A DNA stretch of 46,593 nucleotides from the NCBI GenBank assembly GCA_031425655.1, contig JANPJS010000064.1, positions 1 to 46,593 of the forward strand, given 5' to 3'. Source of the DNA: Abditibacteriaceae bacterium. Its GTDB lineage: Bacteria; Armatimonadota; Abditibacteriia; Abditibacteriales; Abditibacteriaceae. Each line of letters starts with the position of its first letter. The stretch's first letter is position 1. The position numbers were made by a program, and so were the translations under genes. A model generated the notes under the pieces. It saw nothing but the letters and a program-made list of their open reading frames with translations. It was not told where the DNA came from and searched no databases. This document shows positions 4,295 through 26,249 of this stretch, in pieces.

Positions 4295-4410
4295 CAATTT
4301 TTAATGGAACACGGATTTTCACGGAAAAAGCCACTGGTTTACACGGTTTTTGGATTGATCTGCGAAAATCCGTATCGTTTCCGTGAAAATCTGTGTTCCA
4401 TTAAAAATTG
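4295..4410. repeat. ACACGG/CCGTGT-type palindromic element, copy 2
   Basis: 33-nt arms 4295-4327 / 4378-4410, 32/33 complementary. Confidence 0.85.
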
Positions 4411-6049: not shown

Positions 6050-9000
6050 TACGGCAGTTCCTTTTCCAACTTTTCGACGCGCAATCGGATAGTTTCATCG
6101 CCGGCTTCGGCCTCGCTCAGTTCGGGATAATCGTCTCCGACTAAACGCAGTTCCTCGGCCAGAGTTTCATCCTGAAGATAGTCGCCGAAATTTTCCAACA
6201 CGCGCGCAAAGCGGCTCGGCTCCGCCGGTTCGACGACCAAAATAGCGATGTGGTCGCTGACTTCAAAGCCCGCTTTTTTGCGCGCTTCCTGCACCGCGCG
6301 CACGAAATCGCGCGCATAGCCTTCGTCGCGCAAATCTTCGTTCAGCGTGGTGTCAATCGCCACAGCCCAATCGCCTTCGCCCGCGAAGCTGTAACCGCTT
6401 TGCTGTTGCGTTTGCACCAAAATATCGTCGGGCGCCAACTCAATTTCCTGCTCGCCAAGCTGCAACTTCACGCTTTCGCCGCGCCGCACCGCGCTGCCGA
6501 TACGTTTGGCTTCATCGGGCGCGGCGTTTTCCAGTGCCGCGCGAATCGCGCCGATTTGTTTGCCGAATCGCGGCCCCAGCTTCGGCAAATTCGCGCGCAA
6601 CTTGTAAGAAACCAAGTCGCCGGCGTCGTCTAACAATTCCAGCGACTTGACGTTAAGCTCGTCTAAAATCGTTTCGCGCCAATTTTCGAGGCTGCCTTGC
6701 GCTTCGGGCGGCGCCTGAATCAGCACGCGCGGCAGCGGTTGGCGAACCTTAACTTTCGATTCCTTGCGCGCTTTGTGACCCAGCGAAACCGCATTCAAAA
6801 CGCTTTCAACTTCGCTCAGCAATGCGTCATCGCGCAGATTTTCGTCCACGACAGGCCATGCCAAAAGATGCACGCTGTCCGGCGCGTTTCGCAGAGGCCG
6901 CTTCAAATTCAGATACATCGCCTCAGCGGTGAAGGGAATCACCGGCGCGATGAGGCGGCACAACGTCAGCAAAACATGATGCAGCGTTTGATAAGCCGCT
7001 TGCTTGTCGGAATCGCTTTCGCTTTTCCAAAAGCGGCGACGGGAGCGGCGCACATACCAATTGGAAAGGTCGTCGGAGAAGGACTCAACGGCGCGATTGA
7101 TATTTGGCGGCTCAACATTGTCCAGCGCCGCCGTGACTTCCGCAATGAGTTTCTGCAAGCGCGCCAAAATCCATTTGTCCATTGGCGAGGCAGCCTGTGG
7201 CGCCGTTCCACTGGATAATTCCGGCACGTCGAGGTTCGCATAGGTCACGAAAAATGTATAAACATTCCATAACGTGAGCAAAGGCGTGACTAAGCGCCGT
7301 TTCGCTTCGGCTGTCCATTCTTCCAGCGGCATCCGCCCAAAGCGAATGTCCTTCGTGAGCGGATTGCGGCAAAATTCCCAGCGCACCGGATCGGCGCCAA
7401 TGAGAGCCACCGTTTCATCGAAAGGCACGCCGTTTTTGAGAGTTTTGGAAATTTTCTCGCCGCGCTCGTTGAGCATGGTTTCGTAAACCATCGCGCGTTT
7501 ATACGGCGCGCGGTCTTCGAGCGCCACGCTCATAAAGAGCATCGAAAAGAACCAAAGGCGCACCTGCTCGCGCATTTCGCTGATGAAATCCGCCGGCTGC
7601 CAATCTTCGCGCCCGGCGATTTTCAATTCCGGCATCCGAATTCCATCGGCGCCGTTATAACCGACGGTCGCAAAGGGCACAATGCCGGCATCCAGCCACG
7701 CATCGCCGACTTCAGGCACGCGATTCATCACTTTGGTGCGCTCGCGGTTCCAAATCGCCACGCCGTCAATCCACGGGCGATGCAATTCGGGCAAAGCATC
7801 GAACTTTTCAGGTTCGACGGCGCGTTCACGCAATGCGGCCCGCGAAGCAATCACATCCCAATTGCCGTCGTCGTCCATGTAAATCGGCAGCGGCAAGCCC
7901 CAAAAACGCTTGCGACTAATGCACCAATCGCCCATGTTCATCAGCCAGTCGTCCATGCGCTTGCCGGCGTAATCGGGAATCCATTCGACGGTTTGCGCGG
8001 CGCGGCGCAGCCTTTCGCGCGCCGGACGCGGCCCGGCATCGGCGCGGATAAACCATTCTTTCACCGAATAGAAAATCAGTTCCGTGCCGCAGCGCCAGCA
8101 ATGCGGATACGAGTGTTCGTAACGCTGAATACGATAAAGGCGGTCGCGCGCCCGCAACTCTTCAAAAATCGTTTCCACATCGTCTAACGCGTGCAATCCG
8201 GCCAACGGCCCGGCGCCGGGCAAAAAATGCGCGGAGGGCGAAGTCGGCACGATATGGCCCAGCTTTTCACGCTTGCCCAATTCGTAATCTTCCGCGCCGC
8301 AGCCCGGCGCAATATGCACGATGCCAGTGCCTTCGGTTTCGCCCACGTCTTCCCAGGCCACCACGCGGCGCCCAACCGAATTGGTGAGTTCCTGCTGAAA
8401 GGGAATGTCGTCAAGCGGGCCGGAATACGATAGCCCAACCAATTCACTGCCGGGAAACTCATCGAGAATCTCATAGCCGGGCCGCAGCGCACTGGCGACG
8501 GTGCCTTTGGAGAGAATGACCACGTTATCGCCGGTTTTGGCGCGCACATAAGTCAATTCGGGATGCAAAGCGAGAGCGACGTTGGCGGTCAGCGTCCACG
8601 GCGTCGTTGTCCAAACTAAAAAGCGGTCACCGGGCTGAAGACGCCCTCCCCTAACCCCTCCCGGAGGGAGGGGAAACTCCTCCCCCTCCGGGGGAGGCTG
8701 GGTGGGGGCCGTTACCGGCAAAGCAATATAAACGCTGCGGTGCGTGATGTCTTTGTAAGAATCGGCGCTTTCGTGCTGGCTGAGGCTGGTTTCGCAGCGT
8801 GGACACCACGGCATGACGCGATAATCTTGGGCCAGCCAGCCTTCGTCGTGGCATTTCTTGAGAAAAAGCCAGATATGCTCGATATTCGAGTCGTCGAAGG
8901 TGAAATACGAGCGCGGCCAGTCCATCCACATTCCCAGACGCTTCGATTGTTCTTCGATAACGCCCGCGAATTTTTCGACACGTTCGCGGCAGGCACGCGA

Positions 9001-11003: not shown

Positions 11004-11169
11004 AACCCCGTCCCCAGCCCTTCCCCTTGAAACGGCAAAGGGGAAGGGAGGCCCGCCGCCTTTTTCCTGAGAAAGCGGTAATTCTCCCGAATCAGAAGGG
11101 TAGCCATCTCCCTTCCCCTTTGCCGTTTCAAGGGGAAGGGCCGGCGGGCGCCCTCTGGGCAGGGGGGTT
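11004..11169. repeat. CCCTC/GAGGG-type double-hairpin palindromic element
   Basis: Perfect 34-bp inverted repeat 11017-11050 / 11108-11141; each arm is itself a hairpin; carries a 15-nt insertion at 11146-11160. Confidence 0.85.
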
Positions 11170-11173
11170 CTGC

Positions 11174-12604
11174 TTACAAAATGCCGAGATACCGATCCAG
11201 TTCGTATTGATGAACCTGCGTGCGGTATTTTTCCCATTCGATGCGTTTGTTGGCCAAGAATTTATCGAAGAGCGTGTCGCCCAAAACGCGCCGCGCCAGT
11301 TCGCTGCTTTCGGCAGCGATAATGGCTTCGTTCAAGCTGGCTGGCAGGACTTCGGTTTCACTTTCGGCGAGTTCGCTGGCCGGCGCGGGCAGCGAATACT
11401 TGTTCTTGACGCCTTCCAAACCCGCCGCTAAAAGCAATGCGAAAACCAGATATGGATTGCAGCAAGCGTCCGGCGAGCGATATTCGATGCGGCGACTCGC
11501 TTCCCGACCCGGTTTGTGGCTGGGCACGCGAATCAAATCGGCGCGATTGCGCAAGGCCCACGTTACGCGCGTCGGCGCCTCGAAGCCCGGCACCAGGCGC
11601 TTATACGAGTTCACCCATTGGTTCGTGAACAGGGTCAATTCGCGCGCGTGGCGCAGTAATCCGGCGATGAATTGATAGGCGATTTTGCTCAAATGGTCTG
11701 GGTCTTTGGCATCGTAAAACGCGTTGCGACCGCCGCGAAATAAGCTCATGTTGACGTGCATTCCGCTGCCGTTGCAATCGGTCAGCGGCTTGGGCATGAA
11801 CGTCGCGTAATAGCCGCTTTCGTGCGCCACTTCTTTCACCACGAGGCGAAACGTCATCAGGCTGTCGGCCATTGTCAGCGCGTCGGTGTAGCGCAAATCA
11901 ATTTCGTGCTGGCTCGGCGCAGCTTCGTGATGCGACGATTCGACGCCGATGTCCATTTTTTCCAGCGTCAGCGCGGTTTGGCGGCGCAGTGGGCTGGCGA
12001 TGTCGTCCGGCGTCAAGTCGAAATAGCCGCCTTGATCTAAGCCTTCGGGACGCAACTTTTTGCCGCTTTCGGGCTGGCGAAAATAGAAAAACTCCACTTC
12101 GGGGCCGACGTAGAAGTTGTAGCCCATGTCGCCGGCCAAACGCAGTTGGCGCTTGAGAATAAAGCGCGGATCAGTTTCGGCGGGCGTGCCGTCCGGGTTA
12201 AAAATGTCGCAAAACATCCGCGCGACGGTGCCGCCGCTGGCATCCATTTCCTTGAGATGCGTGGGCGAAACCGCGAAGGTATTCGGGTCGGGCACGGCGA
12301 TCATGTCGCTTTCATCCTGACGCGCGTAGCCTTCGATGGCGCTGCCGTCGAAGGTCACGCCTTCGGCAAGCGCGGCGTCCAGTTCGTCGGCGACAATGGC
12401 GGTGCTTTTCAGCATTCCCAAAATGTCGGTGAACCACAGGCGCACGAATTTCACGCGCCTGTCCTGCGCAGCGTGAATCACGAAATCGCGGCTGCTTTGC
12501 GCTTCGTTATCGGCGCTTTCGGGAGTTGGGGATTCCTCTTCGACAACGGCGGGGGTTTCGCTTTCAACAGCGGTTTTACTATTTTTAGCGCGGCGGGCGG
12601 GCAT
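11174..12604 (-). CDS. glnA: Glutamine synthetase type I (alpha-like)
   Basis: FDGSAI, GPEVEFF, HHEAAPSQHEI, TFMPKP, GSGMH, NSYKRLVPGFEAP, RIEYRSPD; start ATG 12604. Confidence 0.93.
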   Translation of the reverse strand: MPARRAKNSKTAVESETPAVVEEESPTPESADNEAQSSRDFVIHAAQDRRVKFVRLWFTDILGMLKSTAIVADELDAALAEGVTFDGSAIEGYARQDESDMIAVPDPNTFAVSPTHLKEMDASGGTVARMFCDIFNPDGTPAETDPRFILKRQLRLAGDMGYNFYVGPEVEFFYFRQPESGKKLRPEGLDQGGYFDLTPDDIASPLRRQTALTLEKMDIGVESSHHEAAPSQHEIDLRYTDALTMADSLMTFRLVVKEVAHESGYYATFMPKPLTDCNGSGMHVNMSLFRGGRNAFYDAKDPDHLSKIAYQFIAGLLRHARELTLFTNQWVNSYKRLVPGFEAPTRVTWALRNRADLIRVPSHKPGREASRRIEYRSPDACCNPYLVFALLLAAGLEGVKNKYSLPAPASELAESETEVLPASLNEAIIAAESSELARRVLGDTLFDKFLANKRIEWEKYRTQVHQYELDRYLGIL

Positions 12605-13691: not shown

Positions 13692-13871
13692 AGTCTGTGT
13701 TCAAAAAGAGTTATTCAGTCCGTTGCCATTGAGTGGCAAAAAATTGAGTGGCAAAAATGGTAAAAAAGTGGGATTTCTCATCCGAAATGCCATGGATGCC
13801 CTTATTTTTTGCCACTCAATTTTTTGCCGTTGGGCCGTTTTTACCCAAATAACTTTATTCGAGCACAGACT
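13692..13871. repeat. Nested element: outer 24-bp IR shell enclosing GGCAAAAA/TTTTTGCC repeats
   Basis: Shell 13692-13715 / 13848-13871 (20/24); inner TTGAGTGGCAAAAA x2 and TTTTTGCCACTCAATTTTTTGCC. Confidence 0.75.
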
Positions 13872-14372: not shown

Positions 14373-14488
14373 AAAATGGAACGCGAATTTCGCAGAAAAA
14401 ACCACGGATAAACACGGATTCACACGGATTTTTTTGGATTAATCAGCGAAAATCCGTGGCCGTTTCTGCGAAATCCGTGTTCCATTTT
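14373..14488. repeat. ACACGG/CCGTGT-type palindromic element, copy 3
   Basis: AAAATGGAACGCG... / ...CCGTGTTCCATTTT; three tandem CACGGAT units. Confidence 0.85.
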
Positions 14489-20147: not shown

Positions 20148-20344
20148 GAAGCAGTCTGAGAAGTTCCCTCTCCCCTTTTGGGGAGGGTGAGGGTGAGGGG
20201 TAAGTAGCGAAGCGGCTCGGAGCATCAGGTTTTAAGAACCGCTTCGCGGTTCGACCCCTCACCACCGACATTCTCAACCATACAAAGGCACCCGTCTCCC
20301 CAAAAGGGGAGAGGAGCCACGCTACCCACTTTTCAGACTCTCTC
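20148..20344. repeat. Nested element: AGTCTGA(G/A)AAGT shell enclosing a CCCTC/GAGGG element
   Basis: Shell 20148-20164 / 20328-20344; inner CCCTCTCCCCTTTTGGGGAGGG / CTCCCCAAAAGGGGAGAGG; lies between convergent stop codons. Confidence 0.75.
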
Positions 20345-26033: not shown

Positions 26034-26249
26034 GAAGCTGTTTGAGAATAGCTATCACTCCTGGGTTGAGCCGCTTTCAATAGGACGCGGAGCTTCGCTA
26101 CGCAGATTTCATGCGCGGATTTTCGCTGATTTTTCAGTAAAACCGCGCCTTCAAAGCCGTTTCGGGCGCCCTCTGGGCAGGAAAGCGAAGCTCCGTGTCC
26201 TATTGAAAAGTCTTCGATTTGAGGCTTTGACGAATTCTCAGACAGCTTC
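26034..26249. repeat. Three-level nested element: IR shell > ACACGG-type copy 4 > 15-nt insertion
   Basis: Shell GAAGCTGTTTGAGAAT / ATTCTCAGACAGCTTC (15/16); inner TTTCAATAGGACGCGGAGCTTCGCT / AGCGAAGCTCCGTGTCCTATTGAAA; GGGCGCCCTCTGGGC at 26164-26178. Confidence 0.8.

Follow-up and report, generated by a model that had tools for sequence, protein, structure and literature searches.

Evidence for a 20-nucleotide hairpin element that replaces five nucleotides of its target in Abditibacteriaceae and Chloroflexota

A non-coding hairpin unit of 20 nt, found in about 300 copies in an Abditibacteriaceae genome, is very probably a mobile micro-element with a simple replacement rule: 20 nt enter and five nucleotides of the target are lost. 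It is likely to be among the smallest mobile elements known. The unit was met in the window, a stretch of 46,593 nt that is contig C64 of genome G000 (5.98 Mb, 97% complete). The initial annotation of the window had proposed a very small mobile or templated unit that is placed in trans by a site-preferring process, and this proposal is supported. The reading that we favour, with confidence somewhat short of even, is that the unit is a non-autonomous element served in trans by an enzyme of the HUH/Y1 type.

Results

Size and sequence of the unit

Two copies in the window share a 19-mer at 11145-11163 and 26163-26181, both on the plus strand, which encloses a 15-mer at 11146-11160 and 26164-26178. 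Each had been assigned to the right arm of a different inverted repeat, and both the positions and the arms were borne out. Within the window alone the excess of the 15-mer was modest, with two matches at up to two mismatches, a number that 2 of 100 shuffles also reached. The genome-wide count that the initial annotation had suggested gave 117 exact copies of the 15-mer and 277 copies of the core GGGYGCCCTYTGGGC, against an order-5 Markov expectation of 0.02-0.08 for each core variant. The flanks of the core were nearly constant, with C before it in 261 of the 277 copies and AGG after it. The flanking C and AGG are parts of the element and not of the target, and the unit measures 20 nt rather than the 15 nt first given. 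Its formula is C-GGG-Y-GCCC-TYT-GGGC-AGG plus one variable base, that is, 19 constant positions and one that changes. In unique contexts this last base was A in 63 of 105 cases, T in 21, G in 19 and C in 2.

Copy 1 (11145-11164, plus strand, last base G) stands in place of a GGATG-type 5-nt spacer; between the same anchors the sister alleles read GGATG in 20 cases and GGGTG in one. It is hosted by a REP-like inverted repeat whose left arm (11014-11050) and right arm (11108-11144, ending at the element's left junction) are 97% complementary, and the repeat is intergenic, downstream of a glutamine synthetase gene. Copy 2 (26163-26182, plus strand, last base A) replaces a CCGCG-type 5-nt spacer, which is CCGCG, CTGCG or CCGTG in the sister alleles. 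Its host is an unrelated inverted repeat between two glycosyltransferase genes, with a left arm at 26075-26099 and a right arm at 26184-26208, directly 3' of the element. Element-free REP-like inverted repeats of the host families were also seen in the window at 1151-1260, 2759-2862, 4295-4410, 8643-8709, 13735-13828 and 14373-14488.

Replacement of target nucleotides

The geometry was read by comparing filled sites with paralogous sister copies of the host repeats. An empty paralogous allele was found for 226 of the 285 long-form sites tested, and in 191 of the 226 the 20 nt stood in place of 5 nt; six nucleotides were replaced in 21 and the remainder were scattered. Of 105 unique contexts, 104 had G as the fifth and last base lost. 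With exact 9-nt anchors, a 5-nt empty allele was recovered for 68 of 144 contexts and ended in G in all 68. By contrast, the empty allele predicted by a pure insertion at C^AGG, as first proposed, was found in none of the 144 contexts and for neither window site, and that reading is therefore refuted. The net gain is nevertheless 15 nt, 20 in and five out, and the insertion preserves frame as the initial annotation had stated. An equivalent description would be that 18 nt replace 4 nt, the fifth base being kept and one base added. The preference for G is valid under either reading, since base 19 of the core was G in 232 of 277 copies although the search pattern did not impose it.

Target-site duplication is absent, target bases being lost and not duplicated. 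At the left target end 4-7 bases were replaced among the sites examined, and IS3 sites in metagenome loci imply, by eye, a replacement of 7 nt. The 5-nt geometry agrees with the reading frame of two Calx-beta genes, two ISAs1 genes and an IS1 remnant, and Calx-beta paralogues mostly carry the expected base at the replaced site. Furthermore, the anticodon stem of an interrupted tRNA-Arg requires 5 nt with the same end base.

The last base of the element depends on the next base of the target in three data sets, whose genomes may partly overlap. It was a pyrimidine before a purine in 22/53, 10/33 and 25/42 cases and before a pyrimidine in 2/42, 1/23 and 9/59. The variable base was already present in the sister allele, as a mismatch model has it, at only 3 of 82 sites. 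Since this base depends on the next target base and is rarely present beforehand in sister alleles, it is likely to be made during insertion. The fourth replaced base is the most divergent position nearby (0.16 vs. 0.04-0.11), which gives the mismatch model a weak hint only.

Hairpin, variants and sister forms

The mini-hairpin of GCCC, loop and GGGC that was noticed at the outset was confirmed. Its stem is nearly invariant, with paired positions less than 2% variable while unpaired C positions drift to T, and the closing pair covaries, being G-C in 258 copies, A-T in 31 and other in 6. Folding energy alone was unremarkable, with z values of 0.03 and -0.64. The two main C/T variable positions assort independently (p=0.3), and several variant combinations coexist in each of seven other genomes. 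The 210 strict copies represent 81 sites and 115 site-by-variant combinations. One variant dominates at most sites (20 of 22 copies at the commonest), suggesting that copies multiply within the host repeats.

Sister forms of 19-24 nt follow the same grammar as the 20-nt main form. For the 24-nt sister nine contexts were compared: in eight it stood in place of 5 nt ending in G, and for the ninth no empty allele was found. A 21-nt sister lies in frame in three coding regions of G000 (C28, C86, C145, C211), one of them presumably with a PA14-like motif, and in these regions it always reads GAPSGS. When other micro-elements were sought de novo, tandem repeats dominated the output and only sisters of the same family were recovered. 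The host family of copy 2 bears hairpin decorations of 8-12 nt (GCGAAGC type; 26088-26097 and 26184-26193 in the window, and in sister repeats), which replace about 4 nt directly after the same G and may be products of a related process.

Target sites

Of 270 non-coding copies in G000, 215 touch a repeat, compared with 1579 of 5000 random non-coding sites (32%); by eye, the other 55 are mostly in diverged repeat members. The host repeats belong to many unrelated families and include both long palindromes and arrays of heptamers. Non-repeat intergenic DNA makes up 79% of the non-coding DNA, yet it holds, by eye, about six copies. The partner arm was upstream of the element in 154 cases and downstream in 42, compared with 44 and 58 in controls (p=1.5e-9), which is a preference for the 3' arm that G content does not account for. 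Inside repeats the replaced bases fold as stem and not as loop. No leading- or lagging-strand bias was detected (126/279, p=0.12, with a crude skew estimate), nor any transcription bias among intergenic copies.

The initial annotation had suggested a test for in-frame enrichment in genes, and enrichment in ordinary genes was not supported. Only two copies of the 20-nt form were found directly in unique coding DNA of G000; both belong to Calx-beta repeat genes, and the remaining copies within genes are carried by repeats. These two copies and the tRNA copy are antisense. At least nine G000 copies are in frame within Pfam-matched genes, among them those for alanyl-tRNA synthetase, GlnE and PurM; most of the nine are part of a host repeat. 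A further 32 copies seem to lie in genes, but in many cases this is probably an artefact of crude start calls.

In other genomes and metagenomes, a motif classifier scored 140 of 222 distinct sites as repeat-like; the 222 include two loci of the unpublished genome G067, which enters no other count. From the remaining sites, 131 of 157 listed frames were scanned against Pfam, with duplicates, some second frames and loci that were repeat-like by eye dropped. Among the 39 Pfam-matched non-repeat sites, 26 are IS genes of about ten families, several of them hit, by eye, in conserved motifs, and several of the 13 sites in other genes are probably chance matches of the 19-mer. The AGG-tail element is on the sense strand in 24 of the 26 IS-gene sites (about 21 of 23 after duplicates were merged by eye). 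A second small set, mostly with other tails, was split into four sense and four antisense copies, so this bias is not general. No excess of local hairpins was found at 29 IS-gene sites. Multi-copy targets besides IS genes are Calx-beta repeats, a pilin-like N-terminus and a tRNA array.

That array comprises seven tRNAs (L091:85-845, G000 C61), and its tRNA-Arg(TCG) is interrupted by the element in the anticodon stem; an Rfam scan of six unique-site loci returned tRNAs only. In the alanyl-tRNA synthetase (AlaRS) gene, one loop (L096:1250-1350, L108-L110) is occupied by an in-frame palindromic repeat that differs from congener to congener, and in two cases a micro-element is nested in it. No clean empty allele was found among these congeners, each of which has its own repeat, and the loop is without insert in genomes of two other genera. 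The related, unique-looking sequences L095:1500-1580 and L092:1990-2070, one with two different micro-elements side by side, are possibly structured RNA, and no Rfam match was obtained for them. In locus L398:400-1150 of G066, about 700 nt contain four copies that have three different tails among them; two of the copies lie inside a weakly matched DDE transposase frame. Head-to-tail copies occur in the linker of a biotin-lipoyl/E3-binding protein (L317:280-340), and an AlkZ-like gene is filled at one and the same site by different variants in L307 and in L429.

Distribution and tail types

The exact 19-mer was found in 10 of 61 relatives, all within the family; the wider pattern reaches 23 of the 27 family genomes, in numbers of up to 282. 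Identical host sites carry the unit in several genomes, and the copies seen in G012 lie mostly in one host family. In Chloroflexota the 16-nt core occurs 4, 63, 112 and 77 times in G063, G064, G065 and G066, respectively. No cyanobacterial record was present among the 87 loci listed, and five matches in viral contigs were uninformative.

Empty alleles for the Chloroflexota copies were sought in about 0.9 Mb of those genomes, with overlaps. For AGG tails, 5 nt ending in G were replaced in 16 of the 21 contexts with an empty allele. For AGCA and GGCA tails, 5 nt ending in C or T were replaced in 22 of 25, and T was the next base in 22 of 22 contexts. AGTA and AGA tails were less regular. The tails thus covary with the target in Chloroflexota, which resembles the guide-dependent site choice and C|T cutting of TnpA-REP.

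An IS110 passenger

The initial annotation had also advised a search for longer elements whose ends rebuild the unit. Such an element does exist, an IS110, but it inserts into the unit. In G000 all 9 left and all 10 right IS110 junctions abut halves of the element at its central CT, and the CT core is present at both IS ends. In G016 six full copies of 1280 bp were read, with the CT core on both sides, and a full copy contains the DEDD and Transposase_20 domains. The G000 assembly lacks the middle of the IS, and only the C-terminal domain is present.

The left end of the IS110 carries a 9-nt copy of the left half of the target together with the reverse complement of its right half, and these guide-like sequences are conserved across G000, G016 and G018. 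The left guide was found in all five left ends (three exact, two with one mismatch) and the right guide in four of five. In a remnant in G006, position 4 of the left guide, C or T, follows the C variant of the target. The joined IS ends form a motif resembling a -35 box, 17 nt and a -10 box across the circle junction, in G016 and, by reading, in G000. From these features the IS110 is predicted to encode a bridge RNA programmed for the element core.

Four copies of the unit have a doubled CT and are likely scars of IS110 excision. A third, interrupted copy in the window holds a remnant of the IS. The left half of the element, with one substitution, lies on the minus strand at 20285-20294 in a third host repeat, and at its CT core it is joined to an IS110 left-end remnant (20257-20284, minus strand; a 47-nt blastn match of 91% to the IS left end). 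A deletion between two occurrences of a 10-nt sequence common to IS and host (20257-20266) probably removed the remainder of the IS together with the right half of the element.

The IS110 junction is absent from the three congeners G001-G003 and from four of five element-bearing Chloroflexota genomes. The IS110 is therefore most probably a user of the unit, a later parasite, and not its maker. The suggestion that the unit is an excision footprint is likewise not supported.

Search for the responsible enzyme

Reverse transcriptase, Argonaute and Y1 profiles were run, and none tracks the distribution of the element. Y1 genes are present in 25 of 27 family genomes, G000 having six such genes, and their presence does not discriminate: G004 combines five Y1 matches with no element, G019 one weak match with 82 copies, and G008 no match with four copies. 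None of the six G000 Y1 genes has a copy of the element within 2.5 kb, a count in which a collapsed multi-copy gene could be missing. No RVT_1 match was found in G000, G001 or G002, and a broken one in G003, in the copy-rich genus; the element-free genomes G004, G007 and G025 have one match each. The Argonaute profile matched 1 of 27 genomes, outside the copy-rich genus. Among 192 small repeat-flanked genes of G000 inspected by eye, none was tied to the element; they include what we take, by eye, to be GxxExxY-like, four-helix-bundle-like and Y1-like genes. A candidate master copy at C45:18854 was discarded, its context not being conserved in congeners. Neither a free intermediate nor a filled/empty polymorphism at one locus was seen in the contigs. 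As a separate observation, the genus of G000, G001 and G002 is without the reverse transcriptase of about 500 aa that most other family genomes have.

Discussion

HUH-type nicking and strand transfer is put forward tentatively as the mechanism of insertion. A HUH/Y1 nicking enzyme would bind the element hairpin as single-stranded DNA, much as TnpA-REP does with REP, and would cut the target 3' of the fifth base. The free 3' end of the element would then resolve the enzyme-DNA link, so that the right junction is fixed, and this step could admit a variable, partly untemplated last base. About five bases (4-7 seen) would be removed from the left target end before it is joined. Inserted copies would multiply further by riding in mobile host repeats.

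To our knowledge, the loss of 5 nt and the extra base are not part of IS200/IS605 chemistry. Known HUH chemistry accounts neither for the 5-nt loss and the added base nor for the preference for IS genes, and the guide-pairing scheme fits the tails followed by T but not the G family of G000. A HUH enzyme is nevertheless favoured because of the constraint on the hairpin, the lack of duplication, a site rule of one or two bases that changes with the tail, and the resolution of the TnpA-REP link by a 3' OH. In one study, the free 3' OH of an added oligonucleotide resolves the phosphotyrosine link of TnpA-REP (PMC8266576).

An alternative that we consider unlikely is writing by a polymerase, either a reverse transcriptase or a repair polymerase. 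The 3' end of a nicked target would prime copying from an RNA or DNA template, one untemplated base would be added and a 5-nt flap removed. The variable base lies at the top-strand 3' end and is mostly A (63/105), as untemplated addition tends to be, and the drift of unpaired C positions to T and the sense orientation of the AGG-tail element in IS genes point the same way. An RNA intermediate has reportedly been proposed for the small dispersed repeats of Nostocaceae as well. However, RVT_1 is absent or broken in the copy-rich genus and present in element-free genomes, although multi-copy genes can drop out of the G000 assembly, as the IS110 middle did, which qualifies the missing reverse transcriptase. 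No conserved single-copy master context emerged from the one candidate examined, and the sense bias was not repeated in the second set, the Calx-beta and tRNA copies being antisense.

Rather more doubtful is passive survival of a rare, untargeted insertion with a one-base preference, the present pattern arising from survival in neutral DNA, amplification in mobile repeats and gene conversion. The single dominant variant at most sites, the host sites filled in several genomes and the concentration of G012 copies in one host family would all be expected from it. This account has difficulty with the near-emptiness of non-repeat intergenic DNA, with the rarity of in-frame copies in unique genes even though coding DNA is about 84% of the genome, and with a 3'-arm polarity that G content does not explain.

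Less probable again is a host system that recognises multi-copy or incoming mobile DNA, stamps the unit on it and so breaks transposases. The share of IS genes among the Pfam-matched sites, the hits in their conserved motifs, the multi-copy nature of the other targets and the fact that IS-gene sites need no local hairpin speak for such tagging. Against it, no defence gene was found, Argonaute being confined to a single genome, and most copies lie in non-coding repeats that go on spreading with the insert. The IS110 moreover profits from the unit, and neutral survival in dead IS copies is a simpler explanation of the IS-gene sites.

It is very improbable that the IS110 makes the unit, as a footprint or a self-seeded target of its bridge recombinase. 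All its junctions in G000 abut element halves and its left-end guides match the element core, but the junction is lacking in three congeners and four of five Chloroflexota carriers (the fifth has a match that may not be an IS), the guides, two pieces of opposite sense that together span only 14 nt, fit one of four variants, and a doubled CT sets the four likely excision scars apart from the unit. Two further readings can be dismissed with near certainty, a 15-nt insertion at C^AGG and an artefact of sequencing or assembly such as an adapter: the 15-nt gain and the C and AGG around most copies agree with the former, but its predicted empty alleles do not occur, and the unit, in four sequence variants and sister forms that are always in genomic context, is present in many independent assemblies and studies, including an independently assembled contig of run X1, which may be of the source sample, that covers 11137-11500 without any difference, unique right flank included, and contigs of X2 and X3, runs of two other studies, with the element in the same host repeat.

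The small dispersed repeats SDR1-8 of Nostocaceae, which Elhai et al. 2008 are said to have described, reportedly measure about 21-27 nt, compared with 20 nt for the main form here and 19-24 nt for its sisters. The statement that no named element is this small was accordingly too strong, these repeats reportedly being of the same size class. SDRs are also reported to be dispersed units of about 20 nt with precise placement. Their reported high copy number, their location inside heptamer repeats and small palindromic elements, and a conserved hairpin with compensatory changes are all features found here. SDRs are reportedly confined to Nostocaceae, whereas the present unit occurs in Abditibacteriaceae and Chloroflexota; it also replaces about 5 nt, has a last base that depends on the target, enters IS genes and hosts an IS110, none of which SDRs are known to do. 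The micro-element is real and behaves like an SDR. SDRs are treated in PMC4390886 and PMC5861425. In the former, SDR5 enters a fixed point of the HIP1 octamer (PMC4390886), while the unit described here has no target motif beyond one or two bases.

REP sequences and REPINs, moved by TnpA-REP (RAYT), resemble the unit in several respects (PMC8266576, PMC3116915, PMC3733652): they are small stem-loops with a short tail and no target duplication, they are mainly extragenic with some in-frame genic copies and IS targets, and some tail variants of the present element land at Y|T steps. The guide-paired C|T cutting of REP/RAYT is fitted by the AGCA and GGCA tails of Chloroflexota and not by the G family. 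In contrast to REP, neither GTAG nor CGTC is found in the element on either strand; there is no adjoining Y1 gene and no doublet structure, and the unit lives inside REP-like repeats and replaces bases. It differs from a MITE in that target bases are lost and not duplicated, and from retrons and DGRs in that no linked reverse transcriptase or template locus was found in assemblies with possible gaps. Rickettsia palindromic elements and intragenic REPs are comparable as in-frame palindromic inserts in housekeeping genes, of which G000 has the nine or more cases noted above; unlike those described in PMC3733652, the in-frame insert here is mostly a larger host repeat with a nested 20-nt unit.

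The passenger IS may be compared with IS621, whose bridge RNA targets REP in E. coli. The two share DEDD and Tnp20 domains, a CT core, a long left end, a 9-nt left guide, a reverse-complement right guide and a promoter-like motif at the circle junction (PMC11208160). They differ in that the target here is a 20-nt element nested in unrelated repeats, and the bridge RNA is a prediction from sequence. A search of the main texts of open-access papers returned no account of this family or of its replacement rule.

The junctions are readable at more than 100 site-and-variant combinations and give exact, testable rules of insertion for any candidate enzyme: the loss of about 5 nt, a fixed base at the end of the lost stretch, a target-dependent base that is added, a polarity towards 3' arms, and a covariation of tail type with the choice of target. 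Should the writer turn out to be a new activity that nicks and joins DNA, it would make small, precise replacements without a homologous donor. A bolder possibility, to which we give a low probability, between those of copying by a polymerase and of passive survival, is that an enzyme present in two phyla is directed at multi-copy or mobile DNA of any family and writes a 20-nt hairpin tag over five bases, the 3' tail of the tag choosing the site. If so, bacteria would possess a micro-writer that is programmable and makes no duplications, perhaps their equivalent of repeat-induced silencing, with the bridge-RNA IS110 clade as its hyper-parasite. The genome shows a nesting of a palindromic repeat in gene or intergenic DNA, of the 20-nt unit in the repeat and of IS110 in the unit. 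The predicted bridge RNA is tuned to the micro-element and kept in four genomes of three genera, and the micro-element and its IS110 form a natural pair of recombinase and target.
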